Positions 11,947 to 36,367 are shown, counted from the first letter of the stretch. The stretch: 64,000 nt of DNA from an uncultured delta proteobacterium (GCA_963737265.1 CAVTRY010000022.1:64001-128000), one strand, 5' to 3'. The notes: generated from the letters alone by a model not told the origin. Numbers and translations are program-made.

Positions 11947-12050
11947 TGAAGCGAGCCTTGGCTTGCGGGCAAAGCCCGCGCCATGAGAGAGTAAGTCCGT
12001 TCATTCCTGACACAGATCCTATGAAGCTCCAGCGGTTGCGGATACATTAG
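11459..12050 (+). pseudogene. GxxExxY protein (PD-(D/E)XK family), +1 frameshift near 11542-11544
   Basis: ATG 11459 homologous to copies 2 and 3; 'caccgtcaccctcggt' has one more C than 'caccgtcacctcggt'; downstream frame has GLLESAY and 'RLDLVVEGRLVVEVK'. Confidence 0.8.
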
Positions 12051-12133
12051 CCGTTGAGAATGCATTTTTGCCTGCGGCGATTGGTGCGCGCGGACGGACT
12101 TCGGGCTCTTCACCTATGACGGGAGACGTTGAA

Positions 12134-14722
12134 ATGAGAGAAAAGACAAAACGCAGTCACTCCGCCGCCGGTTTCGCTGCCATGGGTTTGATTGCGTTTT
12201 CAGCGTGTTCGCTGCAGCCGAAGCAGCCCAGTCTCGACGCGGCCGCAGGGGGCGGGAGCACCACTTCGGGCGGCGGCCAGGGCGGGACGTCGATCGGGGA
12301 GCAGGGTGGCACCACCGGAAGCAGTGCTGGCAGCCTGGCAGGGGGCAACCCCGCGGCCGGCAACGGCAGCGCAGGAGGCAACCCCATGGCGGGTAGCCCC
12401 GCAGGCGGCGGCGCCGGGGGCGGAGGCCCGATAGGCGGCACCTCGACCGGCGCGACCGCGGCAGGCGGGACCCGCACGGGCGGCAATTCTTCCGCTGGCG
12501 CTGGCCCCGCCGCGGGCGGAAGCCCAGCGGGTGGCGGTCTTGCTGGCGGGACTTCCGCGGGCGGGAGCGCAGCGGGTGGCAGTGTCGCCCCGGATGACCC
12601 GACCTGTTCCGCGTATACCGTTACCAGGGTCGTCAAACTGACACCGCAGGATCCGGGGGCCGCGGCGAAGCTGGCGCTAATGTCCCAGAACGACAAGATC
12701 ACCATGCTATCCGGCGACAAAGTCACCGATTGGAATGGCGATACCGCATTCCGCTCCTTCGGCGTTGCCAGCGCAGGCGTCACGATTTTCCCCATGCGCG
12801 ACGGACCGCGCGGCGTGCGCAATATCGATGGCGAGGTCGGCACCACCTGGGCCGTCGCCGAGGCGCGCGCGGCTTCTTTCGATCTGGACCTCGAATACCA
12901 GGTCGGCAAGTACCAAGGGCTGGACATGCGCGCGGCGAAGGACGATCTGGCTCTCGCGCCCACCGTCAACCTGCTTCGCCACCCGCGCTGGGCGCGCGCC
13001 CAGGAAACCTATGGCGAGGATCCCGTATTGCAAGGCGAGATGGGCGCTGCCTTTGTGCGAGGAATGCAGATAGAGGGCAACACCGCCGCTTGTCCCAAGC
13101 ACTTCGTCGGCAACGACACCGACAATAATCGCGGCACCGCCGACCCCATCTACGACGAACAGACCCTGCGCGAGAACTACACGCGGGTATTCGAGATCGT
13201 GGTCAAGAAGGGAGATCCGGCGTGCATCATGGCGGCCTACAACCTGGTCAACGACACGCACTGCACGGAAAACAAGCATATCCTGACCGATATTCTGCGC
13301 ACCGACTGGGGCTGGGCCGGTTTTGTGGTGAGCGACTGGGATGCGACGGTGGTCGGTCACGGCGCCGCGTCAATAAACGCGGGCCTCGACCTTGAAATGC
13401 CGAATCCCGCAGCCTTCACCACCCTCGCTGGCGACCTGGCCTCGGGAAACACCACCACCGCCACGCTCAACCAGGCCGTCACGCGCATCCTCAACGCGCG
13501 CATCAAACTCAATGACTTCGATCCCACCTACGTGTCGGCCGCAAAAGGCAATGGCCATGCCTCCGACACCGCGAACGTCAATCTCGCGGCGCAGACCGAG
13601 TTGGAGGGCGCGGTTCTGCTCAAGAACGATGGCATTCTCCCGCTCGGAGCCACGGCGACGGTGGTCGGCAGCGGGACTCCCAACGTCAAGACCATCGCCA
13701 TCGTCGGCCCGGACAACAACCTGCCCGTGATGCCGCAAAATGGTGTTGCCGGATCGGTTTCGGGGCTGGGCGATCGCGGAAGCAGTCAGACCACGCCGCC
13801 GCATGTGGTTTCCTATTTCCAGGGCTTGAAGGACCACGGTGGTGGCCTCACGATCAACCAAAGCGCGGACTCCTCGGCAGCGGTGGGAGCGGATGTCGTC
13901 ATCATCCCGGTCTCCATGGCCCACGAAGACGAGGGCGAGGCTTACGGCGGCGGCGCGGACCGGCAAAACATGACCCTGGATGGACCGCATCCCATCCACT
14001 GGACGACGAAGCCCGCCGCTTTCATCGCGCAAGTGGCGAAGGTGAACCCGAACATTATCGTGTTGCTCAACGTGGGCAGCGCCATCATCGTCGAAGACTG
14101 GATGGCCAGCGCAAAGGCGATCGTCCAGACCTTCTACCCCGGCCAGGAAGGCGGCGACGCCCTGGCGAAGCTGCTCTTCGGGGACGTCAACTTCTCGGGC
14201 AAGCTGCCCTTCACGGTTGGCCAGAACGAGGCCGACTATCCGGCCTTCGGCAACAGCGGCGGCGCTCGCTTCAATGTCGGCTACCTGCATGGCTACCGCC
14301 TTTTCGAGAAGAACGCCAAGCCGGTCCGCTACTGGTTCGGGTATGGACAAAGCTACACGACCTTCAAGTACAGCAACCTCCAGGTGCTTTGCTCCAAGGT
14401 TTCGTCAACGGGCCGCCTGAACGCGCAAGTGACGGTCCAGAACACGGGAAAGGTTGCCGGGACCGAGGTTGTTGAAGTTTACATTGGCTATCCCAATACG
14501 AAGGCTCCTCAACGGCCGGTCAAGGAGCTGAAGGCTTTCACGCGTGTCACGCTGGCCCCCGGCGCAAGCCAGGTCGTGCAGCTCTCCGTGCCAGCGCAAG
14601 ACATGGCCTATTGGAACACGACCACGAATGGCTGGACCGTCGAGACGGTTCAGCACACGGTTCTGGTCGGGCCGAGCGCCGACCCCACAACGCTCTTGTC
14701 AGCGCCCTTCACCATCCAGTAG
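12134..14722 (+). CDS. GH3 beta-glucosidase-family lipoprotein with Gly-rich linker and C-terminal Fn3-like domain
   Basis: GGAGA RBS before ATG 12134; lipobox-like 'FSAC'; 'RDGPRG', 'ETYGEDP', 'CPKHF', 'VVSDW', 'SGKLP', 'KELKAF'. Confidence 0.92.
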   Translation: MREKTKRSHSAAGFAAMGLIAFSACSLQPKQPSLDAAAGGGSTTSGGGQGGTSIGEQGGTTGSSAGSLAGGNPAAGNGSAGGNPMAGSPAGGGAGGGGPIGGTSTGATAAGGTRTGGNSSAGAGPAAGGSPAGGGLAGGTSAGGSAAGGSVAPDDPTCSAYTVTRVVKLTPQDPGAAAKLALMSQNDKITMLSGDKVTDWNGDTAFRSFGVASAGVTIFPMRDGPRGVRNIDGEVGTTWAVAEARAASFDLDLEYQVGKYQGLDMRAAKDDLALAPTVNLLRHPRWARAQETYGEDPVLQGEMGAAFVRGMQIEGNTAACPKHFVGNDTDNNRGTADPIYDEQTLRENYTRVFEIVVKKGDPACIMAAYNLVNDTHCTENKHILTDILRTDWGWAGFVVSDWDATVVGHGAASINAGLDLEMPNPAAFTTLAGDLASGNTTTATLNQAVTRILNARIKLNDFDPTYVSAAKGNGHASDTANVNLAAQTELEGAVLLKNDGILPLGATATVVGSGTPNVKTIAIVGPDNNLPVMPQNGVAGSVSGLGDRGSSQTTPPHVVSYFQGLKDHGGGLTINQSADSSAAVGADVVIIPVSMAHEDEGEAYGGGADRQNMTLDGPHPIHWTTKPAAFIAQVAKVNPNIIVLLNVGSAIIVEDWMASAKAIVQTFYPGQEGGDALAKLLFGDVNFSGKLPFTVGQNEADYPAFGNSGGARFNVGYLHGYRLFEKNAKPVRYWFGYGQSYTTFKYSNLQVLCSKVSSTGRLNAQVTVQNTGKVAGTEVVEVYIGYPNTKAPQRPVKELKAFTRVTLAPGASQVVQLSVPAQDMAYWNTTTNGWTVETVQHTVLVGPSADPTTLLSAPFTIQ

Positions 14723-14770
14723 AACAGCCGCCAACGTCGTTCGTCAACGCACGAATTCTAGGAGAATCCT

Positions 14771-16210
14771 ATGGATGGATGGAAGTCTTGCGGTCGAGTA
14801 CTATCAGGACCGCTTCTGCTCATTGCGGTCGGGCTTCTTGCCCCGACGGCCCAAGCTGCCCCTGTCGAATCCACGCCGAGCGACGCAGACTCCGCGCCTA
14901 AGTCCCGCCCCGAGCCAGCTCCATCGCCGGAGCCCCGCTCCGGGTCGGCTCCCGAGGCAACTCTGCCCGCTGCCGTGCCCACGGAGAGATCTTGGAGCCC
15001 GTTCGTGGAGGGCACTGGCGCCGCTCCCGAAGCCGGCGTGCCTGGTTGGCTCCTGTATCAATTCAAATACACATCGGGCTTCGAGTGGCACGGCAACATC
15101 GAAATGGATGTAGGCCAGGTTCGGTATTCGTACAGCGATCCCACCCTACAACCGGAAAAGGTTTACGATTGGCGCGGCCGTTTCGTCTTCGGGCCGATGC
15201 TGACCCACGACCTGGGGAGCCGCCTTTTCGTGCGCGTCACCGGGCAAGCCGTGGCCTGGGTTCGCGAGAACTACAATACCTATCAAATCAACGTCGACGA
15301 CGCCTACGTTCAAATTGGCGACCGGAACGGCCTGTGGGACCTGATGGCGGGACGTTTTCTCACCTGGCGGGTATTTCGCAAAGGGCTTGGCTTCGACCTC
15401 TACACCCTCGAGGACACGGGCGCGCGCTTCGCACAGAACTTCACGGATACGTCTGGATTCTTCCAGCACGCGTACGAGGTCAACACCATCTTCTTGCGCG
15501 ACAGTAACAACGTCCCACCGGGGAGAGCGGCGTTCCACCTCTATCCAACCTCGTGGTCGGGTATCGAGGCGGTGGGCACCTACGGCAGATTGGACAGCGG
15601 CGGCAACGTCCTCGGCGGTCGGTTGTCCGCCGGTGTCAACATTCTCTCCTTCGTCAACCTGCTCGGAGGCGCGGAATATGTGGCCTGGCGGCCGGCTTTT
15701 GCGCTTCCGGATCCCAACGCCGCCCCGGGGGGAGCCTTCGTCCCCTGCGACACCTGTGGCAACATCAACATCTATGGCTTGGGCGGCAGCGCCGCCCTGA
15801 CTCCCTTTCGAGGGCTGGAAATCGTCGGAGACTACGCCTATCGCCAGAGCAAGGCCTGGGACGCTCAAAAGAACGTTCTCACAACCGCCACGACAAAGAG
15901 CGGGGGCGGGTATGTGCAAATCGACCCCCTTTACCTTGCCACGCATGAATACTCGTTGATCGTGGGCGGGGGATGGTTTCATACCGAGTACCTGAGCAAC
16001 GACAATCCCCTCACTACCAATGACCAGACCTATCAGCGCCACGACCAGTATGCCGCCTATTTGGTCTACCCGCTCGGCTTCAACAACGCGGTGGTGAAAC
16101 TGGTCTACTCGCGAGCCAGCGGGCACCAGGAACATGGCGACCCCGCCACCCTAACTACCCTCGATGGCACCATGAACGCCCTGCGCCTCCGCTTCGCCTT
16201 CTACTACTAG
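14771..16210 (+). CDS. Putative outer-membrane beta-barrel protein
   Basis: Signal peptide, Pro-rich linker, amphipathic aromatic strands, C-terminal 'LRLRFAFYY'. Confidence 0.6.
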   Translation: MDGWKSCGRVLSGPLLLIAVGLLAPTAQAAPVESTPSDADSAPKSRPEPAPSPEPRSGSAPEATLPAAVPTERSWSPFVEGTGAAPEAGVPGWLLYQFKYTSGFEWHGNIEMDVGQVRYSYSDPTLQPEKVYDWRGRFVFGPMLTHDLGSRLFVRVTGQAVAWVRENYNTYQINVDDAYVQIGDRNGLWDLMAGRFLTWRVFRKGLGFDLYTLEDTGARFAQNFTDTSGFFQHAYEVNTIFLRDSNNVPPGRAAFHLYPTSWSGIEAVGTYGRLDSGGNVLGGRLSAGVNILSFVNLLGGAEYVAWRPAFALPDPNAAPGGAFVPCDTCGNINIYGLGGSAALTPFRGLEIVGDYAYRQSKAWDAQKNVLTTATTKSGGGYVQIDPLYLATHEYSLIVGGGWFHTEYLSNDNPLTTNDQTYQRHDQYAAYLVYPLGFNNAVVKLVYSRASGHQEHGDPATLTTLDGTMNALRLRFAFYY

Positions 16211-16519
16211 GCAATTTTCACACCAACCCCGCCATCGCCGCGTAGGCGCGCCGGTGGCTGGCCCATGGAAAGCGCGAAGCCATGCTGCGCGCCCCGATTC
16301 AGGCATACGAGTCCTCGCGCCGAAGGCTCACGCCACCCGTGGGCCATTGCGCGCCTGGTAGAACGAAGTCGGCCCAAGACGGGGCCGAAGGGTTTCGGGG
16401 TAACCGTTTCATCCAGGACGGCCACGACGCGATGGGAGCCGCTCGGCATGTCGGATGGGACATCCACCACAAGCTGATGGGCTGGCGTCACGATTCCCTG
16501 TCGTTTGCGGTGCTTTCAT
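16207..16519 (-). pseudogene. Frameshifted small antitoxin-like protein remnant
   Basis: AGGGG RBS and ATG 16519 (MKAPQTTG), then after a 1-nt shift 'IVTPAHQLVVDVPSDMPSGSHRVVAVLDE', resembling small beta-rich putative antitoxins. Confidence 0.4.
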
Positions 16520-16620
16520 GGCGGTCCCCTTGCTTGGAATTGTAACCGGGACAGAATCAAAGGTGAGTCGGGAATGGTTTCACTCCGCCCACCAATGGTG
16601 CGTCCCCGGCGCCCACGTCG

Positions 16621-18403
16621 GGGTGGGTTGCACGGGTCCGGGTTTCATGACTGGGCGGCCTGGGCTTGGGTGTGAGGCCAGAGGGCGAGCCAGGCCCCCG
16701 GGTTGTAGAAGGCAACCCTGAGCGCGACCATGGCTTCAAGGCCGACCTCGCTCCAGAGCATGCCGCCTTGCTTGCAGCGCCGGCCGACGAGGCGCTTGTT
16801 GGTGCTTTCGATGGCGGCACTGGCCAGCGGATAGCCGGCAGCGTGGTATGCGGGGTAGTCCATCATGTACTTGTGGCGGCTCAGGTAGCCGGTCAAGTCG
16901 TCGAGGGCTTTGACCGCTTGGCTGCCGGTGGAGCGCTGCCGCTCTTGGGCGAGGCCCGAGAGCACCTGGTCGACCTTGCCGTCCATGATGGCCTCGGTAC
17001 GTGGCAAGACCCAAGATGGCACTGCTTTCTTGTCCGGCACGACCTTGTGACCTGCCTCCCAGACATGCTGCTTGGCGTGCTGGCAGTCGAGGATGCCAAG
17101 CAACGGCTGGTCGCAGAAGATCTCGTCGCTGTGCTCGATGAAGTAAGCGCCACCGTCGGAGACACGGACTACCTTCTGGCGAGACAGCACGCCCTGGGTC
17201 GTGGCGGCGGCGTGCAGCTTGTGCCAAAAGCCGTCTCGGTCGTTGAGTGTTGCGACGTAGCGCCGGTCCAGCAAGACGCCTCGGCCGGGGCTCTCCTCGC
17301 AGGCGTGTTCCCCGAGGTAGGTCAGTCCCATGCACACCTCGCGGCCGGCGACCCGTGGTGAGCGCCCGGTGGGCCCCATGGGCGAGCCAGCGACCTCGGA
17401 CAGGGTACTCGGCGCCTGATGGCGAAGGGCACGTTCGCCGGTCTCGCTGACCGCTGCCGACTGTGTGGCGTTCGGGACCGCAGACGGCGCCTTCGCCTCG
17501 TCGGTCGCTTTGCGCCGTGGCTCTTGTCCTGGTTTCCAGGTCAGGACGTGAACACCGTCAACCTCGATCACGCCGAAGCCCTCTGTACGCTTGGGCGCAC
17601 ACAGGTCACCGCGAGCCTGGGCGTGCCACCTGTTGGTCGTACTTGCTCCAATGGGCTTCGGCATCGGCCTGGGCGGCCTGGGCGGCACGCGTTCCATCTT
17701 CGGTCACCCATCGCTTGGCGGTGCTCCCGTCGGGAGCCACGGCCCACAGGTAACGGAGTTCCTCGACGGCCTCGTCGAAGCTGCCCATCCGGCAGGCCAG
17801 CCTTTCGGTCGCCTCGCGCACATCGTCGGCGTATTCGCCCGCAGGAAGGCCCCAAGCCTCGTCAAAGGCAAACCAGCTGCGGCCGCAAACACACTCGTTG
17901 CGTCGACGATCGGCTTCCACCCGACCGAATCTCGCCACGAACGTCGTTCTCTCAAATCCTCTGGATTTGGCTTGCTTTCCACAGGTGCAGACTTGTCCAG
18001 GTCCATGAGCCCGCGCGGCCTGTTGGATGACCAGTTCCATGGCTCTTCGGCCCACAGTCGACAACGTCGTCGCCAGCGCAGCCCCCAGCGTCGCCACGGA
18101 CATGCCATCGCCGCGCAGCGCTTGTTGTTCGAGCTCGTTCAATTTCTGGACGAGCGGTTCCAGAGCCTGCAAAGTCAATCCTGCGACATTGGGTCGTCTC
18201 ATGGCGGTGCCTCCTTCTTGGATAGCTGAAGGCATCGCCATGAATCTCCTTCCTACGCAAATTCCTTCCATTTTGGGAACCACGCCAGGGCCCGTATTCC
18301 GAGCGCGCCACCCACCAACTCGCCCTCGAATCAACGTCCCGTAGCGCGCTCGGAAAACGGGCCCTTCAGCCGCCACCAGAACCCGGGCCCGTGCAACCCA
18401 CCC
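16621..18403 (-). mobile_element. ISKra4-family (prokaryotic Mutator-like) insertion sequence, 1783 bp
   Basis: 24-bp TIRs GGGTGGGTTGCACGGG(T/C)CCGGGTT; 9-bp TSD CCCACGTCG at 16612-16620 and 18404-18412. Confidence 0.9.
16645..18202 (-). pseudogene. ISKra4/UPF0236-type DDE transposase split by a frameshift near 17630
   Basis: N-half from ATG 18202 (AAGGAGG RBS, CxC...CxC motifs); C-half 'IEVDG', 'VSDGG', 'LDCQHAKQHV', 'GYPLASAAIESTNK...RCKQGGMLW'. Confidence 0.85.
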
Positions 18404-18420
18404 CCCACGTCGCGGAGGTG

Positions 18421-18449
18421 TAGGCAGCCGAGAAGTTGTCTGGTAGTAT
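18421..18449 (+). promoter_or_regulatory. Putative sigma70 promoter
   Basis: TAGGCA-17bp-TAGTAT with TG extension, upstream of ATG 18472. Confidence 0.45.
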
Positions 18450-18471
18450 TCCGACCCTGGTGGGGAAGAGA

Positions 18472-19242: not shown

Positions 19243-19254
19243 TCGCGTTTTCCC

Positions 19255-22200
19255 ATGAGGATGACCATGCCCAGATTTCAGGTTCGCTGGCTGGCGTTCG
19301 CGGGCTTCGCGTACGCTCTTGCCGGTTGCAGCTTTTCGCCAAACATTCCGAATGGCCACATCAGCTGCCAAACACAGGCTGATTGTCCATCCGGCTACAC
19401 CTGTGAGCAGGTCCAGTTTCCGAAGACTGTTGCGCAGCCTCCATTGGTCAGAGTGTGCTGCAAGGGTACGGCCTGTGGGGCCAACCTCCCTCAGGACGTA
19501 ATCTCGAAGCTTCTATCTCTCGACGGTGGCAACGATGGTCCGACGACCACCGACGTCGCTCGCGCCGGGGACGGCAGCTCCGATGCCATCGGCAATGCCC
19601 GTCCGGACGCACGTTCAATTGACGAGGCAGTCGATGTTCCGCAGACTCAAATTCCAGATGCGCCCTATGCCGGCGAGGTTACCACTTCCAACGGAGGCCA
19701 AGGTGGGACCTCGGTCGGAGCCCAAGGGGGCAACACGACGGGCGGCGCAGGAATCTCAGCGGGCGGGAGTTCTGTGGGCGGCGGGCCTCAGGGTGGCACA
19801 ACCGGCGCAGGCGGTTTCCCAGCGGTGGGCAATCCAGCAGGGGGCAATTCGCTCGCTGGCAGCCTTGCCGGCGCAAACCCGGCCGGTGGCAATCCGGCGG
19901 CGGGAAATCCCGCGGCTGGTGGTTCTGCCGGCGGCGGGCCTCAGGGTGGCATTACCGGCGCGGGCGGTTCCCCGGGAGCGGGCAATTCAGCAGGAGGCAA
20001 TTCGCTCGCGGGCAGTCTTGCCGGCGGAAACCCAGCTGGTGGCAACCCGACGGCGGGAAATCCCGCGGCTGGCGGCTCTGCCGGCGGCAGCCCCGCGGGT
20101 GGGATCCCAGATGGTGGCGCTAGTGGCGGAACCACTGGCGGCGGAGCCGGAGGGGCCACGGTCGTCATCGATGACCCCACCTGCTCCTCCTTCACCGTTC
20201 CAAGGACCGTCAAACTGACACCGCAGGATCCGGGGGCCGCGACGAAGCTGGTGCTAATGTCCCAGAACGACAAGATCACCATGTTGTCTGGCGACAAGGT
20301 CGTCAATTGGAGTGGCGACACCGCATTCCGCTCCCTCGGCGTTGCTAGCGCAGGCGTCACGGACTTCCCCATGCGCGATGGACCGCGCGGCGTGCGCAAT
20401 ATCAATGGCGAGATCGGCACCACGTGGGCCGTTGCCGAGGCGCGCGCGGCTTCCTTCGATCTGGACCTCGAATACCAGGTCGGCAAGTACCAGGGGCTGG
20501 ACATGCGCGCGGCGAAAGACGATCTCGCGCTCGCGCCTACGGTCAACCTGCTTCGCCACCCGCGCTGGGCGCGCGCCCAGGAAACCTATGGCGAGGATCC
20601 CGTATTGCAAGGCGAGATGGGTGCTGCCTACGTGCGAGGAATGCAGCAGGAGGGCAACACCGCCGCTTGCCCCAAGCACTTCGTTGGCAACGACACCGAC
20701 AATAATCGCGGCACCGCCGACCCCATTTACGACGAACAGACCCTGCGCGAGAACTACACGCGGCCTTTCGAGATCGTGGTCAAGAAGGGAGATCCGGCGT
20801 GCATCATGGCGGCCTATAACCTGGTCAACGACACGCACTGCACGGAAAACAAGCATATCCTGACCGATATTCTGCGTACCGACTGGGGCTGGGCCGGTTT
20901 CGTGGTGAGCGACTGGGATGCGACGGTGGTCGGCCACGGCGCCGCGTCGATAAACGCGGGCCTCGATCTCGAAATGCCGAATCCCCAGGCGTTCACCACC
21001 CTCGCTGGCGACTTGGCCGCAGGAAACACTACCACCGCCACGCTCAACCAGTCCGTCCTGCGCATTCTCAACGCGCGCATCAAGCTCAATGACTTCGATC
21101 CCGCCTACGAGGCCGCCACGAAGACGTCCGGCCATGCCTCCGACACGGCGAACGTCAATCTCGCGGAACGAACCGAGCTGGAGGGCGCGGTTCTGCTCAA
21201 GAACGACGGCATTCTCCCGCTCGGAGCCACGGCGACCGTGGTCGGCAGCGGGACTCCTAACGTCAAGACCATCGCCATCGTCGGCCCCGACAACAACCTG
21301 CCCGTCATGCCGCAAAACGGCGTTGCCGGATCGGTCTCGGGGCTGGGTGATCGCGGAACCAGTCAGACCTCGCCGCCGCACGTGGTTTCCTACTACCAGG
21401 GCTTGACGAACCACGGTGGCGTCGTGATCAACCAAAGCGCGGACTCCTCCGCGGCGGCAGGGGCGGACGTGGTCATCATTCCGGTCTCGATGGCTCACGA
21501 GGATGAGGGCGAGGCTTACGGTGGGGGCGCCGACCGCCAGAACATGAACTTGACCACGATCCACCCCCTGCACTGGACCACGAAACCGACAGCCTTCATC
21601 GCGAGCGTCGCCGCCATCAACCCGAACGTCATCGTGCTGCTCAACGTGGGTAGCGCCGTCATCGTCGAGGACTGGATGGCCAGCGCCAAGGCTATCATCC
21701 AGACCTTCTATCCCGGGCAGGAAGGCGGAACCGCCCTGGCGACGCTGCTGTTTGGCGACACCAATTTCTCGGGCAAGCTCCCCTTCACGGTCGGACAGAA
21801 CGAAGCCGACTATCCGCAGTTCCAGAACAGCGGCGGGGCAGCGACGACCATCGACTACTACCACGGCTACCGCTTGTTCGAAAAGAACGCCAAGCCGGTG
21901 CGCTACTGGTTCGGCTACGGCATGAGCTACACGACCTACAAGTACAGCAATCTACAGGTGCAGTGCTCGAAGGTTTCGCCAAACGGTCGCCTCAATGTTC
22001 AGGTCACGGTCCAGAACACCGGCGCGGTTGCCGGGGACGAGATCGTTCAGCTCTACATCGGCTATCCGAACAGCAAGGCGCCCAAGCGGCCGGTCAAGGA
22101 GCTCAAAGCCTTCACGCGGGTTACGCTCGCTCCTGGCGCGAGCCAGAACGTCCAGCTCTCCGTGCCCGCGACGGACACAGCCTATTGGGATGTAACCAAG

Positions 22201-22296
22201 AATGCCTGGACGGTCGAGTCGGTGGCACACACGGTTCTGGTGGGGCCGAGCGCCGATCCAACTCAGCTTTTGTCAGCATCCTTCACGATCCAGTAG
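19255..22296 (+). CDS. GH3 beta-glucosidase-family lipoprotein, paralog 2 (Cys-rich N-terminus, Gly-rich linker)
   Basis: Lipobox 'LAGC'; 'CQTQADCPSGYTC'; catalytic region closely similar to 12593-14722. Confidence 0.92.
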   Translation: MRMTMPRFQVRWLAFAGFAYALAGCSFSPNIPNGHISCQTQADCPSGYTCEQVQFPKTVAQPPLVRVCCKGTACGANLPQDVISKLLSLDGGNDGPTTTDVARAGDGSSDAIGNARPDARSIDEAVDVPQTQIPDAPYAGEVTTSNGGQGGTSVGAQGGNTTGGAGISAGGSSVGGGPQGGTTGAGGFPAVGNPAGGNSLAGSLAGANPAGGNPAAGNPAAGGSAGGGPQGGITGAGGSPGAGNSAGGNSLAGSLAGGNPAGGNPTAGNPAAGGSAGGSPAGGIPDGGASGGTTGGGAGGATVVIDDPTCSSFTVPRTVKLTPQDPGAATKLVLMSQNDKITMLSGDKVVNWSGDTAFRSLGVASAGVTDFPMRDGPRGVRNINGEIGTTWAVAEARAASFDLDLEYQVGKYQGLDMRAAKDDLALAPTVNLLRHPRWARAQETYGEDPVLQGEMGAAYVRGMQQEGNTAACPKHFVGNDTDNNRGTADPIYDEQTLRENYTRPFEIVVKKGDPACIMAAYNLVNDTHCTENKHILTDILRTDWGWAGFVVSDWDATVVGHGAASINAGLDLEMPNPQAFTTLAGDLAAGNTTTATLNQSVLRILNARIKLNDFDPAYEAATKTSGHASDTANVNLAERTELEGAVLLKNDGILPLGATATVVGSGTPNVKTIAIVGPDNNLPVMPQNGVAGSVSGLGDRGTSQTSPPHVVSYYQGLTNHGGVVINQSADSSAAAGADVVIIPVSMAHEDEGEAYGGGADRQNMNLTTIHPLHWTTKPTAFIASVAAINPNVIVLLNVGSAVIVEDWMASAKAIIQTFYPGQEGGTALATLLFGDTNFSGKLPFTVGQNEADYPQFQNSGGAATTIDYYHGYRLFEKNAKPVRYWFGYGMSYTTYKYSNLQVQCSKVSPNGRLNVQVTVQNTGAVAGDEIVQLYIGYPNSKAPKRPVKELKAFTRVTLAPGASQNVQLSVPATDTAYWDVTKNAWTVESVAHTVLVGPSADPTQLLSASFTIQ
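19775..20100 (+). repeat. Intragenic tandem duplication of a ~51-codon Gly-rich unit
   Basis: 'GGGPQGG.TGAGG.P..GN.AGGNSLAGSLAG.NPAGGNP.AGNPAAGGSAGG' occurs twice. Confidence 0.75.
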
Positions 22297-23066: not shown

Positions 23067-23103
23067 GGCGCAACGACCACCAGAAGCGCGGGCTGCCGGC
23101 TAC

Positions 23104-23681
23104 GGGTGCCTCCCTGAAACGGGGGCCCCAGCCGGGGGCTCGGTGAGGTAGCAACTTCTGGCGGAGTGCCGCCGAAAACGCAGATATGGAACAGCGAGGA
23201 ACGGAGAAACAGAGACAGGATGACTTTACTGGGCAAATTATCGCCGCCTGCATCGAAGTCCACCGTCACCTCGGTCCCGGGCTGCTTGAGTCGGCCTACG
23301 AGCACTGCCTGGCGCGCGAGCTAGGCCTGCGTGGATTTCGCACGCAACGTCAGGTCGCGATTCCTCCGCAGTACAAAGGCATTGACCTCGACTGCGGCTA
23401 TCGCCTCGACCTCATGGTGGAAGGCCGTTTGGTCGTCGAAGTCAAGGCGGTAGAGCAGTTGCTTCCTGTCCACTTGGCACAGGTCATTACCTATCTCAAG
23501 CTCCTACGACTGCCGGTGGGCCTGCTCGTCAATTTCCACGTCCCCGTACTTCGCGAGGGTCTCCGCCGCCTCTCAACCCAACCCGTGATCCCTCTGGTCC
23601 TCCGTTCCTCCCTGTTTTTCCCTCCGATCCCACCTGCGCGGGGCGAGGTGAAGCCCCAGCCCCCATTTCAGGGAAGCACCC
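23104..23681 (+). mobile_element. GxxExxY-carrying TIR element, copy 2 (578 bp)
   Basis: TIRs GGGTGC(C/T)TCCCTGAAA(C/T)GGGGGC; 9-bp TSD GCCGGCTAC at 23095-23103 and 23682-23690. Confidence 0.95.
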
Positions 23682-23701
23682 GCCGGCTACCAGGAGATTG
23701 A
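23186..23701 (+). CDS. GxxExxY protein (PD-(D/E)XK nuclease family)
   Basis: 'IIAACIEVHRHLGPGLLESAY', 'YRLDLMVEGRLVVEVKAV', 'AQVITYLKL...GLLVNF'. Confidence 0.92.
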   Translation: MEQRGTEKQRQDDFTGQIIAACIEVHRHLGPGLLESAYEHCLARELGLRGFRTQRQVAIPPQYKGIDLDCGYRLDLMVEGRLVVEVKAVEQLLPVHLAQVITYLKLLRLPVGLLVNFHVPVLREGLRRLSTQPVIPLVLRSSLFFPPIPPARGEVKPQPPFQGSTRRLPGD

Positions 23702-23726
23702 CCTTCGAGGTAGGAAAGACTACTCT
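23698..23726 (+). promoter_or_regulatory. Putative sigma70 promoter of abrB-vapC (probably leaderless)
   Basis: TTGACC-17bp-TACTCT, 6 nt before ATG 23733. Confidence 0.6.
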
Positions 23727-23732: not shown

Positions 23733-23972
23733 ATGAAATCCGCGATTTCGGAGAAAGGCCAGGTTACCATCCCGAAGTCGGTGCGGGATCGTCTGGGTCT
23801 CCGTCCGGGAACCTTGATCGAGTTTCGAGCCGAGAACGGCCGACTGGTTGGGGCCAAGTCCGTTCCCGAGGACGCTTTCCGCAAGTGGCGAGGCCGAGGT
23901 CACTTGCCTGGCGGAATGACCGTCGACACGTACCTTGCTCGGGCGAGGGGCACGGGTGCGCACGGCGGTTGA
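23733..23972 (+). CDS. AbrB/MazE/SpoVT-family antitoxin
   Basis: 'ISEKGQVTIPKSVRDRLGLRPGT.IEF'. Confidence 0.9.
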   Translation: MKSAISEKGQVTIPKSVRDRLGLRPGTLIEFRAENGRLVGAKSVPEDAFRKWRGRGHLPGGMTVDTYLARARGTGAHGG

Positions 23973-24369
23973 CAGCAGTGTTCTCCTCGATGTCCTGATC
24001 GCCGATCCACGCTTCGTGGAGTCATCCGAGCAGAGCCTGCGGCATGCTGCGGGCGAAGGCGCGCTGTTGCTGTGCGAATGCGTGCTGGCCGAGATCACGC
24101 CCGTGGTGGGAGCACCCGCCATCGACGAATTCCTGGCAGACTGGAACCTTGCCTTCGTACCGTCCACCATCGAGAGCGCTAAGCTTGCGGGCGACATGTA
24201 CCACAGCTACTTGCGACGCAGCACCCGACCGGCCCAGCGGGTGGTTCCGGACTTTCTCATCGGTGCCCACGCCGTGTGCCTGGCCGATCGGCTGCTGGCC
24301 AGGGATCGCGGCTACTACCGAGACTATTTCAAACGGCTCCGCGTGGTCGAACCCCAGGTGCGGCGCTAG
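23956..24369 (+). CDS. vapC: PIN-domain (VapC) toxin
   Basis: 'TAVDSSVLLD', 'CVLAE', 'PDFLIGAHA', 'LLARDRG'; overlaps the antitoxin stop. Confidence 0.88.
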   Translation: MRTAVDSSVLLDVLIADPRFVESSEQSLRHAAGEGALLLCECVLAEITPVVGAPAIDEFLADWNLAFVPSTIESAKLAGDMYHSYLRRSTRPAQRVVPDFLIGAHAVCLADRLLARDRGYYRDYFKRLRVVEPQVRR

Positions 24370-28502: not shown

Positions 28503-28649
28503 GGCGCTATTTTAGGGCTCGTCCGAAAATAGTCGATACGATTTCGCCGCCGATCCATCCCGACCGGTGCGCGTGCCTTGCCGGTTTCGGCGGGAACCCG
28601 ATGAGGTAGACTGCGCCTCGTGGTCCAAATTGCCCTTTTGCCACGCGAC

Positions 28650-29007
28650 GGAGGCGGTGCCAGCGTTTTCTTGGAAGGCGGAAAGACAGGCGGAGGCGCG
28701 GAGGCAGGCGCGGAGGCGGTGCCAGCGTTTTCTTGGAAGGCGGCGCCGCGGAGGCGCGGAGGCGGTGCCAGCGTTTTCTTGGAAGGCGGAAAGACAGGCG
28801 CGGAGGCGGTGCCAGCGTTTTCTTGGAAGGCGGAAAGACAGGCGCGGAGGCGGTGCCAGCGTTTTCTTGGAAGGCGGAAAGACAGGCGGAGGCGCGGAGG
28901 CGCCGGCGCGCGGAGGCGGAGGCGGTGCCAGCGTTTTCTTGGAAGGCGGAAAGACAGGCGCGGAGGCGCGGAGGCGGTGCCAGCGTTTTCTTGGAAGGCG
29001 GAAAGAC
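28650..29007 (+). repeat. Tandem array, 7 copies of the 32-bp core GGAGGCGGTGCCAGCGTTTTCTTGGAAGGCGG
   Basis: Cores start at 28650, 28712, 28758, 28802, 28846, 28918 and 28970; linkers are built from AAAGACAGGC and GCGGAGGC subunits. Confidence 0.9.
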
Positions 29008-29219
29008 GGCGTCGGCGATCCCTGAAAGCGAGCAGATGGCGGAGGGCGGGGACGACCAGAACATTGGTTTCGTCGTGAAACCTGTCGCCGTAGGCCAGGC
29101 TGGGGCCACGATCAGGAAAGTGGAGTTGCAGATTTGCCGTCGGTGACGAACGTCAGGCAGATCGTTCCCCTAACCACGTGCCGGGCGGGCTCGTCAGCGC
29201 TGTGGTGCTGGGGCCCGGG

Positions 29220-30143
29220 TCAGGCTGTTTCGTTGAAGGGCAGCTGCGGTGGGAATGCCCACAGCGGGAACATGTCCCTGATCTCCCGTGCTCGCTCGCG
29301 CAGGCGCAGGGCACCGGCGCGGAAGGCGTCGACGAAGGCGCGGTAGGCGACGCGAAACTGTTGTTCGGTAGAATCGTCGGTGGCGTGGACGAAAGGCGCC
29401 GGGCTGCGGTCGGTGGTGGCGGGCTTGCTGTGCGGATCCTGGGCGAGGATAGCTTCGACGGTCATGGGCGCGCGCCCCTTCTCTTTGTTGTCGGCCTCGG
29501 CCTTGGCCTGGATCTCGCCAACGACGCGGCGGTAGTGGGCCTGGCGCTGGTCTTCGGTCATGTCGAGAAGACCGGGCAAGGGCGTGAGCTTGACGTCGAA
29601 GGTGGTAGCGAACTGCGTGGGCAGGGTGTGCTCGCCGCACTGGCGGGCAAGGAACTCTTTGCTGCGGTCGAACCATGTGCCGCGGAGGATAGCGCCGGTG
29701 GTGAGGGCGGCGACGCAGTTGGGGCCTGGCCAAGAGGCAGAGCTCGCCAAGAGGCCCTCTTTCGCGCCGTGGGCTAAAATGTAACGCATGCGCGCGTGTG
29801 CCGCTTCCTCGTCGGCGACGACGATGGAGCGGTAGCGGCGCGACCACAGGCGCTCGCGCCAGAAGTGAAGGCGTCCGGCCTCCTTGGCGACGTTGGCATT
29901 CACGAACTGCATGAACAGTGCAAGTTGGCCAGGGCTGGCGGGTGACAGCAAGAAATGCGCGTGGGTGCTCAAGAACACGAAGGCATGGATGGTCATGCCG
30001 TAGAGCACCTGGGCCTTGCCGATGATGCCGAGGATGATGTCGGTGAGCTCGGGCGACGGCTTGAGCAGCAGCCTGCCTTGCAGGGTGCGGGTGGTGATTT
30101 CGACGAGGGACTGTTCGGGGATGAGGCGGAGAGGGCGTGGCAT
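29220..30143 (-). CDS. RAYT-like Y1 HUH transposase (IS200/IS605 superfamily)
   Basis: 'MPRPLR...VEITTRT', HUH 'FVFLSTHAHFLL', 'LWSRRYRS', catalytic Tyr region 'RYILAHGAKEGL', 'WPG'. Confidence 0.85.
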   Translation of the reverse strand: MPRPLRLIPEQSLVEITTRTLQGRLLLKPSPELTDIILGIIGKAQVLYGMTIHAFVFLSTHAHFLLSPASPGQLALFMQFVNANVAKEAGRLHFWRERLWSRRYRSIVVADEEAAHARMRYILAHGAKEGLLASSASWPGPNCVAALTTGAILRGTWFDRSKEFLARQCGEHTLPTQFATTFDVKLTPLPGLLDMTEDQRQAHYRRVVGEIQAKAEADNKEKGRAPMTVEAILAQDPHSKPATTDRSPAPFVHATDDSTEQQFRVAYRAFVDAFRAGALRLRERAREIRDMFPLWAFPPQLPFNETA

Positions 30144-30159
30144 ACGGGACTATCGGCAA

Positions 30160-30530
30160 GGGCGGCAAGAAGTTGCTTGTGCTTCCCCAGAAAACTCTGG
30201 CACCTCCCCAGGCGGGCAGAAAACTCTGGCACCTCCCCAGGCGGGCAAGAAGTTGCTTGTGCTTCCCCAGAAAACTCTGGCACCTCCCCAGGGCACCTCC
30301 CCAGGCGGGCGGCTTCCAAGAAGTTGCTTGTGCTTCCCCAGAAAACTCTGGCACCTCCCCAGGGGCACCTCCCCAGGGCACCTCCCCAGGCGGGCGGCTT
30401 CCAAGAAGTTGCTTGTGCTTCCCCAGAAAACTCTGCCACCTCCCCAGGGGAGCACCTCCCCAGGGGAAAACTCTGGCACCTCCCCAGGGGCACCTCCCCA
30501 GGGCACCTCCCCAGGCACCTCCCCAGGCGG
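30160..30530 (+). repeat. Complex tandem array (CAAGAAGTTGCTTGTGCTTCCCCAGAAAACTCTGGCACCTCCCCAG and subunits)
   Basis: Four long units (~30166, 30246, 30317, 30402) and more than ten GCACCTCCCCAG-type subunits. Confidence 0.9.
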
Positions 30531-30589
30531 GAGGTGTTATTGGGCCTGTCCTGCTCGACGGGTGTGGCGGGCGAGGGCTGGGCGGGCGA

Positions 30590-30754
30590 GGGAACGACCT
30601 CGCTGCGCGAGGCAGCGTGTGGCGAGAGTACGCCAAAATATCTGGTGAAATGCCGCTTTGGAGAAGGCGACGGGCGCGGCTTCTTGAGCCCCAGCTTCGC
30701 GTTTCCATCGTCGAGGATTCTGAGCCTGTCCTTGGCGAGTGGCGGGCGCAGGAT
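30590..30754 (-). pseudogene. IS91-family (Y2) transposase remnant
   Basis: 'ILRPPLAKDRLRILDDGNAKLGLKKP' joined to 'PSPKRHFTRYFGVLSPHAASRSEVVP', both IS91/ISCR-like C-terminal motifs. Confidence 0.6.
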
Positions 30755-30864
30755 GCTAGGGCCTACCCGCCCAACCCCTGCCCCACGCGCCTCGCGCGCG
30801 CCCGTCTCCACAGGGTCACTCGGCCTTGCTTGTCGTTGGCGGCAACCTTGGTAGCAGCCGTCCG

Positions 30865-33162: not shown

Positions 33163-33932
33163 GGGCGCGCTCTCCGCGTGCGCATGATGAAGTCGATGTG
33201 CGCCTGCTCGGTCTTGTAGTCGAGGCAGAACGCGTACATCACCACGTTCACGGCGAAGCGAAAGGCGCGCTCGCGCTGGTCTTCGCCGCCTGGAACCACG
33301 TCGTGCTCCCAGCGCCCGAAGCCATCGCGCGCCAGGGCGCCGCACAGGTCGTTTTGGGTGTAGATGACGGCCAAGCGACGGTCGCGCTCGACACATTCCA
33401 AGATGGGCGAGGCGAGCAGCCGGCCAGGCACGTCGTGCAGAATGTAGAAGGATTTCCACAGCACGTGGTCGTCGGGCACGCGTTTGGGAATGTCGCCGGG
33501 CAGAACCCGGGCGAGCAGCTTGCGCACCGATTCGTCGAAAGCGCCGCCCGCGCGTCCTTCGGCCGAGTCGATGAGCAGGCAGCCGCCAAAGGTGAGGTAG
33601 CGGCGCAGGCGCACGACATCGGAATCGGAAGGCATGGCGAAGCCGCGGTCGCCGGACAGCAAGCACAGCGGATAGCGGAAAAGATCCAGGCTGGCGAGCG
33701 GCAGGTCGAGCGGATCTGGAATCGTCACCAGGCTGGTTCGCCGCTCTACCTCCCACGCCAGACGGCGCAGGGCCGTGGGACGCGGGTCGGGTAGATCGGC
33801 AAAGCGCAGGCGCACCAAGCGCAGTTTGGAGAGATCGCCGAGGGCGAGCGCGCGGCGGGCGACGAACAGCAAGCCGGCGGAGGCAAGTCCGGTCAAAAAC
33901 CTCCGCCGGGCGAGCAGCCCTGGGCTGGCCAT
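33159..33932 (-). CDS. DUF4159-domain protein with Tat-like signal
   Basis: 'RRRFL'; 'LFRYP', 'LRRYLTFGG.LLID', 'AFRFAVNVVMYAFCLDYK'. Confidence 0.8.
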   Translation of the reverse strand: MASPGLLARRRFLTGLASAGLLFVARRALALGDLSKLRLVRLRFADLPDPRPTALRRLAWEVERRTSLVTIPDPLDLPLASLDLFRYPLCLLSGDRGFAMPSDSDVVRLRRYLTFGGCLLIDSAEGRAGGAFDESVRKLLARVLPGDIPKRVPDDHVLWKSFYILHDVPGRLLASPILECVERDRRLAVIYTQNDLCGALARDGFGRWEHDVVPGGEDQRERAFRFAVNVVMYAFCLDYKTEQAHIDFIMRTRRARP

Positions 33933-34037
33933 GCCGCACTCGGCGATGCGGCGCGCCGCAAGCCCATCGACCGCATTGTTGTCAATCGATCGCCGCGCTG
34001 GCAAACGGTTCGCGCTCATCCGATACTAGCGCCTGTC

Positions 34038-34838
34038 ATGAGGTACCTGTCTAGGTCGTTCATCGCCCTGAGTATGATGGTTGTTGTTTCGGCTGTCGCG
34101 CCCAACCCTGCGCGTGCCCAAGAAACCGCCGCCGGTGCGGCGGCGCCCGCTGCGGCGCCCGTGCCAGCCGAACCTGCAGCGCTGCCCGAGGCCGCGCCCG
34201 CAACAAGCGAGGATGGGGCCGCGCCCAAGAAAAGAAAACGGGCGGCGCCCGTGGCGGCAGCCCCGGCCGAGGCTGGCGAGATGCACGCGACTTTCGGCGG
34301 CCCGGCCGAAATGAACCACCGGCTGCAAACCGGGCTGTCCGTCATGCCAGGCACGGGTTACCGGTTGATCGTTCCTTACAAAGAAGGCCAAAAATGCGGT
34401 GACTCCTCGGGCGTCGATAATAAACGGGTTTGCGCCCACAGCGTCCCCGCGTTCTTGGACTTCCAACTTTCCTTCGGCGCGGGCTCGCGGGTAGACCTCA
34501 TCGCCGACATCCGCTTTGGCTTGCAGAGCGATCCCGCGATATCCGGCGCGGGCAGCCACCAGTTCGCGCTGGCACCTGGGTTGCGATTCTGGCTCGATCA
34601 GGAGGTGGCGTTGAAGTTCTACACCACCCTTCAGTTCGTCTACGACTACACCGACTTCTCCGCTTCCGGGACGGGCATCAGCAGCAGCGATGTGGGCGTG
34701 CGCAACGCCAACGGCCTCATGTACGATCCCATCCGCAACGTGGGCTTCTTCGTGCAATTCGGTGAAACCATCGGATTTATGCGCTGGTTCCGCATCGATT
34801 TGGACGTGGGGCTGGGCGCCCAAATCCGCTTTCCGTAG
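34038..34838 (+). CDS. Small outer-membrane beta-barrel-like exported protein
   Basis: Signal peptide, Ala/Pro linker, beta-strand pattern ending 'LGAQIRFP'. Confidence 0.6.
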   Translation: MRYLSRSFIALSMMVVVSAVAPNPARAQETAAGAAAPAAAPVPAEPAALPEAAPATSEDGAAPKKRKRAAPVAAAPAEAGEMHATFGGPAEMNHRLQTGLSVMPGTGYRLIVPYKEGQKCGDSSGVDNKRVCAHSVPAFLDFQLSFGAGSRVDLIADIRFGLQSDPAISGAGSHQFALAPGLRFWLDQEVALKFYTTLQFVYDYTDFSASGTGISSSDVGVRNANGLMYDPIRNVGFFVQFGETIGFMRWFRIDLDVGLGAQIRFP

Positions 34839-34839
34839 C

Positions 34840-35451
34840 TCACTCGGTGGCGGCGACGGGGCGCGCACGGCGCTTGCGGTACATCTTGATGGCGATGAAA
34901 AGAGCGGCAATCGCCACCAAGAAAAGAATGCCGTACTCGGAACGCCTGGCCCATTTGATGACGTAATCGATGTTATCGCCGAAGAACCACGCCAGGTACA
35001 CCAGGGCGGGAACCGAAAGCAGGGCAGCCATCGCATCGTAGACGATGAAGACGTAGGGCCGGACGTGCAACATGCCCGCGGACAGGAAAATGGAAAAACG
35101 CAGACCGGGCAAGAATCGGGCGATGAAGACTACCTTGCTGCCGTATTTGCGGAAGTAGGCGCGCACGCGAAGCTGCCGGCGCGGGGTAAAGTAGCGATGA
35201 CCGAACCGGGTTGCGAGCAGGCGGGTGCCGAACAGGCGCCCCATGGTGAAGGCCATGCTGTCGCCCCCGAGCACCGCGGCAAAGCAAACCAGGAACACGG
35301 TGTGAAGATCGACGGTTCCTCGGTGGGCCAGGTAGCCCGCCGAGATGAGCGAAATGTCTTCGGGAATAGGCAGGCCAAGACCGCAAAGCAGGAGGATTGC
35401 CGCCAGCTTGGCGTAGACATGCGACGTGAGATAACCGAGCAGTGACTCCAT
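34840..35451 (-). CDS. DedA-family membrane protein
   Basis: 'GLGLPIPED', 'GDSMAF..GR', 'ARFLPGLR'. Start at ATG 35451. Confidence 0.9.
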   Translation of the reverse strand: MESLLGYLTSHVYAKLAAILLLCGLGLPIPEDISLISAGYLAHRGTVDLHTVFLVCFAAVLGGDSMAFTMGRLFGTRLLATRFGHRYFTPRRQLRVRAYFRKYGSKVVFIARFLPGLRFSIFLSAGMLHVRPYVFIVYDAMAALLSVPALVYLAWFFGDNIDYVIKWARRSEYGILFLVAIAALFIAIKMYRKRRARPVAATE

Positions 35452-35529
35452 TCGAACCAACTCGTGGCCACATCCCATAGCACGGATTCGCATCCTGGGC
35501 GGGATCCCGTGATACTCTCTCGACGGCGA

Positions 35530-36108
35530 GGGTGCCTCCCTGAAACGGGGGCCCCAGCCGGGGGCTCGGTGAGGTAGCAACTTCTGGCGGAGTGCCGCCG
35601 AAAACGCAGATATGGAACAGCGAGGAACGGAGAAACAGAGACAGGATGACTTTACTGGGCAAATTATCGCCGCCTGCATCGAAGTCCACCGTCACCTCGG
35701 TCCCGGGCTGCTTGAGTCGGCCTACGAGCACTGCCTGGCGCGCGAGCTAGGCCTGCGTGGATTTCGCACGCAACGTCAGGTCGCGATTCCTCTGCAGTAC
35801 AAAGGCATTGACCTCGACTGCGGCTATCGCCTCGACCTCATGGTGGAAGGCCGTTTGGTCGTCGAAGTCAAGGCGGTAGAGCAGTTGCTTCCTGTCCACT
35901 TGGCACAGGTCATTACCTATCTCAAGCTCCTACGACTGCCGGTGGGCCTGCTCGTCAATTTCCACGTCCCCGTACTTCGCGAGGGTCTCCGCCGCCTCGT
36001 CAACCCAACCCGTGATTCCTCTGGTCCTCCGTTCCTCCCTGTTTTTCCCTCCGATCCCACCTGCGCGGGGCGAGGTGAAGCCCCAGCCCCCATTTCAGGG
36101 AAGCACCC
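35530..36108 (+). mobile_element. GxxExxY-carrying TIR element, copy 3 (579 bp)
   Basis: Same TIRs as copy 2; 9-bp TSD CGACGGCGA at 35521-35529 and 36109-36117. Confidence 0.95.
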
Positions 36109-36367
36109 CGACGGCGACTGGCCATTGACAGCGGGGCGAGACCGCCTTAGAAGCCAGTCAGAAAGCCATGCAAATGAAAAACTACCAGTGGACGCTAGGA
36201 TTTTTCGTGGCCGCGCTTTTCGTGGCCACCCCGGCATGCAAGCCCGAGTACCCGGCTTGCGAAACCGACAAGGACTGCAAGAGCAAGGAATTTTGCGTAG
36301 CCCGCAAGTGCCAGCAGTGTCGCGACAGCAACGACTGCGGCGAGGGCCGCGAGTGCAGCAACGGTAA
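35612..36367 (+). CDS. GxxExxY protein; frame reads through the right TIR into the pal region
   Basis: Intact GLLESAY and D..EVK core ending 'GLRRLVN'; no stop until 36367. Confidence 0.85.
   Translation: MEQRGTEKQRQDDFTGQIIAACIEVHRHLGPGLLESAYEHCLARELGLRGFRTQRQVAIPLQYKGIDLDCGYRLDLMVEGRLVVEVKAVEQLLPVHLAQVITYLKLLRLPVGLLVNFHVPVLREGLRRLVNPTRDSSGPPFLPVFPSDPTCAGRGEAPAPISGKHPDGDWPLTAGRDRLRSQSESHANEKLPVDARIFRGRAFRGHPGMQARVPGLRNRQGLQEQGILRSPQVPAVSRQQRLRRGPRVQQR
36125..36153 (+). promoter_or_regulatory. Putative sigma70 promoter of pal-cpoB
   Basis: TTGACA-17bp-TAGAAG. Confidence 0.6.

Follow-up and report, generated by a model that had tools for sequence, protein, structure and literature searches.

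A GxxExxY cassette with ISKra4-type ends lies in phase with promoter-like sequences in the genome of an uncultured Myxococcota lineage

We analyzed a 64,000-bp stretch of DNA from an uncultured delta proteobacterium (the window; CAVTRY010000022.1:64001-128000 of GCA_963737265.1), in which three copies of a short element carrying a GxxExxY gene, hereafter the cassette, stand just upstream of promoter-like sequences. All three copies lie on the plus strand. Copy 1 (11378..11946), whose open reading frame (ORF) is broken, is framed by the 9-bp target-site duplication (TSD) TGAAGCGAG at 11369-11377 and 11947-11955. Copy 2 (23104..23681) is flanked by GCCGGCTAC (23095-23103 and 23682-23690), and copy 3 (35530..36108) by CGACGGCGA (35521-35529 and 36109-36117). 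Alignment of the region gave lengths of 569, 578, and 579 bp for copies 1, 2, and 3, respectively. In each case the right end of the cassette, where the 3′ end of the GxxExxY ORF lies, faces a -35-like box, and 7 bp separate the right-hand TSD from this box.

Each box precedes different genes. Sixteen base pairs from the right end of copy 1 is TTGCGG (11963..11968, plus strand), with a weak -10, upstream of a GH3 glycosidase gene (12068-14722). Copy 2 is followed by a promoter-like TTGACC-N17-TACTCT (23698..23726, plus strand; TTGACC at 23698, TACTCT at 23721) upstream of an AbrB/MazE-like ORF (23733-23972), which we named by eye from its N-terminal sequence, and of an ORF (23935-24369) with a weak PIN-domain match, which at 21.3 bits falls short of the Pfam cut-off (23.6). 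Copy 3 stands before the TTGACA-N17-TAGAAG promoter (36125..36153, plus strand; TTGACA at 36125, TAGAAG at 36148) of an OmpA/Pal-like gene (36168-36926), after which comes a TPR/YbgF-like gene (36917-37726); this promoter is conserved in four sister species. An initial annotation had reported that the three elements end exactly 16 bp before TTGCGG, TTGACC, and TTGACA, that TACTCT and TAGAAG follow the latter two after 17 bp, and that copy 1 has only a weak -10. All of these positions and sequences proved correct. The downstream genes are also as it named them (GH3, a toxin-antitoxin-type pair, and a pal-like gene with a YbgF-like gene), with the PIN match below cut-off and the AbrB/MazE assignment made by eye.

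The cassette has 23-bp terminal inverted repeats (TIRs). The left one is GGGTGCCTCCCTGAAACGGGGGC and the right one is the complement of GGGTGCTTCCCTGAAATGGGGGC; they are complementary at 21 of 23 positions (91%). The ends read GGGTGC and are of the type found in the ISKra4 group of insertion sequences (ISs), in which TIRs of 18-39 bp end in ...CACCC (5′-GGGTG...) and the direct target duplication is 8-9 bp; the repeats and the 9-bp duplication of the cassette fall within these ranges. Its sole ORF encodes a GxxExxY protein (TIGR04256, 138.7 bits against a cut-off of 35; PF13366 PDDEXK_3, 136.6 bits against a cut-off of 22), and it has no p-MULT 4/ISKra4-family DDE transposase of its own. Lacking a transposase gene, the cassette is a non-autonomous derivative and not an IS. 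Nor is it a miniature inverted-repeat transposable element, a class that is short and non-coding, since it holds an ORF with a 128-aa domain. IS-type repeats and a TSD around a passenger gene, no transposase, and a related IS in the same genome place it among the mobile insertion cassettes (MICs), and we infer that a related autonomous IS mobilizes it in trans. We consider it very probable that this non-autonomous GxxExxY cassette is moved by an ISKra4-group (p-MULT 4) transposase to sites 16 bp from a -35 box.

The window forms part (C22:64001-128000) of a metagenome-assembled genome (MAG; G000) of 6.55 Mb in 25 contigs. The host belongs to an uncultured soil Myxococcota lineage, and its MTHFR is 78-80% identical to that of soil or fen MAGs labeled Myxococcales or 'Proteobacteria'. 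Using copy 2 as a blastn query, we found 39 cassette loci in this genome. Thirty run from end to end, and nine are truncated, internally deleted, or interrupted. A perfect 9-bp TSD flanks 28 of the 30 full-length copies; one of the two imperfect cases is a 1-base shift of the boundary, and in the other the pair agrees at 7/9 positions. The TSDs have no consensus (information content ≤0.19 bit across positions 1-9), as the initial annotation had noted from the three copies at hand. Copy 1 is a member of subfamily B, being 98-99% identical to three other copies and 93-94% identical to the main family. This four-copy subfamily is the older one, and because of its 93-94% identity to the rest, the cassette must have spread in at least two waves.

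Scanning G000 with the GxxExxY profile gave 43 matches, with some loci counted twice, and 27 at a stricter threshold. Eighteen other genomes among the 150 searched in the phylum have a match, with 1-7 matches each. Transposition, not duplication of a gene family, explains the roughly 40 GxxExxY genes of G000. Two of the interrupted cassettes (C20:14118-16133 and C23:162554-164571) are 2-kb versions split by an unrelated 1.43-kb IS. That IS has the ends CATAGGCATTAACCC and 10 copies. It entered the two cassettes at mirror-image points, 24-34 bp from either end and within a small GC hairpin beside the TIR, which suggests that it targets the GC hairpin next to the terminal repeat of the cassette.

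We then read the flanks of the cassette outward from its terminal repeats, which were gathered by a regular-expression search. The set comprises 36 right and 35 left flanks, with two junctions excluded in which the flank is another cassette copy. TTG starts at +17 in 9/36 right flanks (binomial p 1.1e-9) and 7/35 left flanks (p 4.2e-7), against a null of 0.0136 from 200,000 random positions. At every other offset from +1 to +64, TTG occurs at most twice, with no enrichment. The longer TTGAC was seen at +17 in six right flanks (p 8e-14) and one left flank, with a null of 0.0006. A -10-like TAnnnT starts at +40 in eight right flanks and one left flank, and at +41 in two right and three left flanks. 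At any of +39 to +41 it is present in 10/36 right and 4/35 left flanks (14/71 overall, against a null of 0.8%), and none of the other three-position start windows holds more than three.

The two boxes also occur together. We defined a composite as a -35 matching TTGACA at ≥4/6 positions and a -10 matching TATAAT at ≥4/6 positions, with a spacing of 16-18 bp. It is present in 7/36 right and 2/35 left flanks, while the null is 0.09% per junction and a shift to any of 45 other offsets never gave more than one in these flanks. Counting either box, TTG or TAnnnT, 24 of the 71 junctions are phased (0.34), with 15/36 on the right and 9/35 on the left. The cassette sites are phased to the base with both halves of sigma70-type promoters at about one-third of the junctions, and on either side. 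ISKra4-group elements are known to insert at this distance from sigmaA promoters (about 16 bp upstream), with either end toward the promoter. The initial annotation had expected TTG at +17 and TAnnnT near +40 in the flanks of further copies, and the genome-wide set bears this out.

A preference of the transposase for a pure DNA motif would place TTG in the same way. Each protomer would recognize a TTG(AC) half-site at a fixed distance from the cut, with no contact to RNA polymerase or sigma, and promoters would be targets merely as carriers of that motif. A symmetric dimer predicts TTG on both sides, as found (nine right, seven left), and in one case the gene beyond a phased site is convergent, with its 3′ end toward the site. 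The second box fits this explanation less well. TAnnnT is phased independently, 17 bp beyond the TTG and far above its 0.8% expectation, and it also occurs in flanks that have no TTG, such as C11:507827 (TACAAT) and C12:406017 (TAGTAT). A -10-like box lying about 30 bp from the cut site suits the architecture of a promoter and not a transposase half-site. The phased -10 thus favors recognition of promoter architecture over that of a single half-site, and we regard the pure motif preference as possible, though rather unlikely; promoter DNA and polymerase-bound DNA are not separable here.

Such behavior has been published for the ISKra4 group. Guerillot et al. (2014; PMC3942029) describe five prokaryotic Mutator-like families. 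In their account, TnGBS/ISLre2 elements (p-MULT 3) are inserted one way round, leaving 16 bp between the right repeat and the -35, and TnGBS is proposed to recognize promoters by contacting the initiation complex. The ISKra4 group (p-MULT 4) is represented by 13 ISs, reported to keep this distance with promoters on both sides, which the authors ascribe to the near-symmetric repeats of this group (83-100%); the targeting was inferred from promoter-prediction software over many ISs. Rows for the ISKra4 group in Table S1 of the same article give ends of GGGTGC/GGGTGA and direct repeats (DRs) of 9 bp, with one IS at 8, and a promoter is present at a fraction of 0.2-0.5 of the junctions. The cassette resembles members such as ISKra2, ISCasp2, ISLfe1, and ISHhy1 in its GGGTG(C) ends, its repeats (about 22-26 bp in the group), its 9-bp DR, its spacing of about 16 bp from downstream sigmaA-type promoters at either end, and its promoter ratio (0.34 vs 0.2-0.5) (PMC3942029). 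None of the ISs in the rows of Table S1 starts with GGGTGCCT or GGGTGCTT (PMC3942029). Unlike the ISKra4-group ISs, the cassette has no transposase gene; it has a GxxExxY/PDDEXK_3 gene instead, is 578 bp long, and occupies 39 loci.

The initial annotation had assigned the elements to a TnGBS/ISLre2-type transposase, inserting in a fixed orientation with the right repeat beside the promoter. Its placement among the prokaryotic Mutator-like transposases stands. The cassette shares with TnGBS integrative and conjugative elements and ISLre2 the Mutator-like DDE superfamily, the 9-bp duplication, and a distance of 15-17 bp upstream of the -35. The right end points to the promoter in 3/3 window copies, right-end signals exceed left-end signals in the genome (15 vs 9 junctions; TTGAC 6 vs 1), and ISKra4-family proteins of G000 give weak, sub-threshold ISLre2 matches. 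The family and the fixed orientation did not hold up. TnGBS/ISLre2 elements are oriented and mostly from Firmicutes, whereas the cassette uses both orientations. Phased sites exist on the left (TTG 7/35, p 4e-7; TAnnnT 4/35), and the right-over-left excess is not significant by a simple binomial test (p ~0.3 for 15 vs 9, p ~0.13 for TTGAC 6 vs 1). Searching G000 with the ISLre2 model gave 13 matches, of which none reached the cut-off of 200 bits (best 65.3 bits), and the genes concerned score higher on the ISKra4 model (NF033572, cut-off 205 bits). GGGTGC ends with a 9-bp DR also match the ISKra4-group rows of Table S1 (PMC3942029). A p-MULT 3 transposase is, in our judgment, very improbable; the common orientation is a property of the three window copies, and the matching family is the ISKra4 group.

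The site of copy 3 provides an empty-site control. In four sister species of the genus (G001, G002, G008, and G010) the site is empty and both flanks adjoin. Aligning these loci, we find a single copy of the target, then TTGACA-N17-TAGAA(G/A), and a pal-like gene that starts in the same way. The element and its 9-bp duplication are the sole difference between the copy-3 site and the empty sites. The copy-3 promoter is conserved and older than the insertion. A wetland metatranscriptome (X10) holds contigs of a 90-95%-alike relative; one of these (about 91% alike) joins 35518 to 36107, skipping 588 bp, and so represents the relative's empty site. This contig says nothing on transcription starts. 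Three further data sets (X1-X3) are DNA contigs that break at the repeat. Empty sites were not obtained for copy 1, where only the MTHFR flank is conserved in relatives, for the C21 copy, where synteny is broken in relatives, or for the C18 copy, whose flanks were not found in relatives. Junctions from sister genomes were unusable, as G003, G004, G005, and G009 contain related GxxExxY DNA without ISKra4-type ends.

A double hit was found elsewhere in the genome. At C17:62354-63520, two non-identical cassette copies stand in direct tandem with three copies of the 9-bp target GCGCCACGG. Since two different copies share this target, they represent two separate insertions into an identical sequence. 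The last GCGCCACGG lies 7 bp from TTGACC-N17-GATACT. The claim of the initial annotation that the element is targeted to promoters is thus strengthened by the genome-wide -35/-10 phasing, the empty site with a conserved promoter in four species, and the double hit. One may ask whether insertion was random, with selective survival of harmless intergenic copies upstream of promoters. In a crude ORF screen, 23/30 sites were outside candidate ORFs, and selection alone could yield such a figure. It cannot give single-base phasing (TTG 9 and 7 times at +17 vs ≤2 elsewhere) and leaves two independent hits on the same 9-bp target unexplained; we give random insertion with selection very little credence.

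The passenger ORF varies among copies. The function of the GxxExxY/PDDEXK_3 family is listed as unknown in a table of PMC3424549, and our literature search met the family in incidental mentions only. In copy 1 the ORF ends after 34 aa. In copy 2 it (23186-23701) extends beyond the right end of the element, and in copy 3 (35612-36367) it has no stop codon within the element. The main-form ORF reads through the right repeat into host DNA, giving a different C-terminal tail in each copy. Among the 25 of 30 copies that could be parsed for stop codons, the stop lies 4-259 nt beyond the element in 17 and is missing within 300 nt in three more; in five copies frameshifts bring it inside the element. 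Homologues in sister genomes, which have no ISKra4-type ends, stop a few codons past a conserved tail, ...PPFLPV(H/F)P. The stop codon of the cassette was probably lost at capture.

Damaged forms of the gene have also spread. A one-base deletion in the nuclease domain is common to 8/30 copies at different sites, other indels are common to 3-4 copies each, and a truncation at profile position 89 is common to 10 loci. Nearly the whole domain is retained in 20/39 loci. Because frameshifted and truncated variants occur at many sites, the passenger ORF is unnecessary in cis. Intact copies keep a D...EVK motif, nuclease-like in the manner of PD-(D/E)XK proteins. The idea that this PD-(D/E)XK protein is itself the mobility enzyme, homing to the repeats as its recognition sites, would suit the kept motif and a family of unknown function, yet it is hardly credible given that frameshifted variants spread to at least 8-10 sites, that TIRs together with a duplication of constant size (9 bp) mark DDE transposition, that the same type of repeat flanks ISKra4-family transposase genes, and that GxxExxY genes without ISKra4-type repeats stay at low copy number (1-7 matches per genome in the 18 of 150 genomes with a match).

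The very probable movement by an ISKra4-group transposase calls for a helper in trans. Two loci in our genome scan exceed the ISKra4 cut-off, one of them on contig C20. There, C20:66979-69098 is a complete, intact, single-copy IS of 2120 bp with the TSD GGAAAGCGG. Its repeats, GGGTGCCTAACCGAAACGGGGG and (reverse-complemented) GGGTGCCTACCTAAACCGGGGG, are each identical to those of the cassette at 19/22 positions. It encodes a 466-aa transposase (NF033572, 256.9 bits, covering profile positions 24-422 of 422) and a second ORF. C20 also holds two damaged cassette copies, and this ties the IS to the same genome or element pool. On its sequence, the C20 IS would be the best candidate helper in the genome. 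Relatives of its transposase (61-66% identical) are found in soil MAGs of other phyla. One of these, in a Solirubrobacteraceae MAG (66% identical), has flanking repeats that match the left end of the cassette at 23/26 positions and a left junction with TTGACA at +17. The closest multi-copy relatives are in a Bryobacterales MAG, where only nine repeat matches were found, too few for statistics.

Other candidates for the helper were rejected. Performing a regular-expression search of the genome for an autonomous copy with identical repeats, we recovered cassette copies only (76 matches, three of them unrelated). An ISKra4-like IS of 1781 bp is present in the window at 16621..18403 (minus strand) with a broken transposase gene, the TIR GGGTGGGTTGCACGGG, and the 9-bp TSD CGACGTGGG. 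It has 10 full copies in G000 with 9-bp duplications, and across the genome TTG stands at +17 in 6/26 of its ends; this member of the same superfamily thus shares the bias of the cassette and lends it independent support. With the cassette ends it shares only GGGTG. One of its copies (C7:82597-84377) is flanked by a 17-bp direct repeat, not 9 bp. The ISKra4-family IS at C7:242094-243813 was likewise set aside, its repeats being unlike those of the cassette beyond GGGTGC.

Based on these data we propose the following mechanism. An ISKra4-group DDE transposase, of which the C20 IS would be the best candidate source, very probably moves the cassette in trans. It would make 9-bp staggered cuts, with the edge of the site 7 bp upstream of a sigma70-type -35 hexamer. 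Together, the 9-bp stagger and these 7 bp account for the 16 bp between the -35 and the element end. Since the terminal repeats are 91% alike, the promoter can be on the side of either end. On insertion, the core promoter and the 16 bp adjoining it on the upstream side are left as they were, and DNA beyond that point is displaced by 587 bp. The initial annotation had suggested that expression of the GH3 gene, the TA operon, and pal-cpoB may be altered. With the promoter and its adjoining native DNA preserved, such a site would be relatively harmless, and relatively harmless sites would allow about 39 insertions to accumulate. The structure, copy number, TSDs, phased -35/-10 boxes, empty site, and related IS are direct observations. 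The acting transposase is our deduction from them, and recognition may proceed as proposed for TnGBS, with the transposase contacting either promoter DNA or the transcription initiation complex.

Several observations weigh against this mechanism. About two-thirds of the junctions (47/71) have neither TTG at +17 nor TAnnnT at +40/41, and 7/30 insertion sites are within possible ORFs in the crude screen. At least one TTG-bearing left flank, that at C21:137846, runs toward a convergent ychF-like gene and enters it at the 3′ end; judged by sequence, that site is promoter-like and not a demonstrated promoter, and 'promoter-like' is the safe term for all sites except that of copy 3. We found no RNA runs of this organism, the metatranscriptome contigs of the relative being the only related RNA. 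The repeats of the C20 IS differ from those of the cassette at 3/22 positions, and this IS is single-copy. The true helper may be absent or unassembled, G000 being a MAG for which contamination stands at 7.6%. For three ISKra4-group ISs of Myxococcales/Planctomycetes (ISHoc2, ISMfu2, and ISGob7), Table S1 gives 0 junctions with a predicted promoter (PMC3942029).

We compared the cassette with other passenger-carrying elements. Like MICs, it is present in multiple copies flanked by target duplications, and it has a passenger gene, but no transposase gene, between repeats resembling those of a resident IS. Known MICs derive from other IS families (e.g. MIC231), and a full-text literature search returned no report of a MIC derived from ISKra4 or targeting promoters. 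The same kind of search gave no paper on a non-autonomous or passenger-carrying ISKra4 derivative or on a mobile GxxExxY gene. Plant Pack-MULEs are described in the article of Guerillot et al. as non-autonomous, gene-carrying elements that insert near the 5′ ends of genes (PMC3942029). Like the cassette, they belong to the Mutator superfamily, are non-autonomous, carry captured coding sequence, duplicate 9 bp of target, and favor the 5′ or promoter side of genes. Unlike them, the cassette is bacterial, carries a whole small gene and not fragments, and is phased to the base with -35 and -10. By analogy, the cassette resembles a bacterial Pack-MULE.

The GxxExxY gene has inverted repeats of its own, distinct from the ISKra4-type ends. 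In the cassette the inner repeat is about 38 nt long and spans the start codon and the C-terminal tail (arms at 23187-23225 and 23586-23625 in copy 2), so that the protein begins and ends with residues encoded in the arms. A paralog without ISKra4-type repeats (C22:198321-198790), between a comM-like gene and recA, has an inner repeat of about 49 nt with a different sequence. Repeats of 28-71 nt bracket the ORF in 11/14 GxxExxY loci from other genera of the phylum, where they consist of short tandem units such as CACGGAG or CGCAGAG. The sister species G003 and G004 have many ORF-less derivatives in which the 5′ arm is joined to the 3′ arm (about 80-180 and 455-535 of the cassette); these sit in a different element with the repeats GGAACCCTnnGAGGGCAnCCCTTTCAAGG and no ISKra4-type ends. 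An Rfam search with the cassette returned nothing (best E 0.31), and the folding of an ORF-less relative (z = -1.48) was not convincing. We tentatively suggest, as one of the less likely options, that the cassette is a counterpart of Pack-MULEs with two nested selfish layers, a GxxExxY module of an undescribed kind, bounded by inverted repeats, that was captured by ISKra4-type ends and spread in a promoter-proximal manner. If so, a second mobility system could reside in the inner repeats, or they could fold into an RNA stem for excision of the module from host transcripts, as in rRNA intervening sequences.

Other repeats lie between the cassette copies in the window. The GH3 gene at 12068-14722 has a paralog at 19255-22296, with long stretches of 79-92% identity between them (repeat families D4-D7 and D11), and the two flank the broken 1781-bp ISKra4-like IS at 16621-18403. 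Two tandem-repeat arrays (28630-29020 and 30128-30448), about 1.1 kb apart, are built of 44-85-bp units (families D3 and D8).

Promoter-directed transposition is rare in bacteria. The targeting seen here is not a new principle, being a published property of the ISKra4 group; the new part is that a derivative of this kind carries a gene (GxxExxY/PDDEXK_3) and is non-autonomous. For this one element, a single genome offers 71 junctions, with base-exact -35/-10 phasing, an empty-site control, and a target hit twice. The 578-bp mini-element and the 466-aa transposase would form a convenient substrate for asking how a Mutator-like transposase finds promoters, and the phased sites can be read as a catalog of candidate promoters for this uncultured lineage of Myxococcota.

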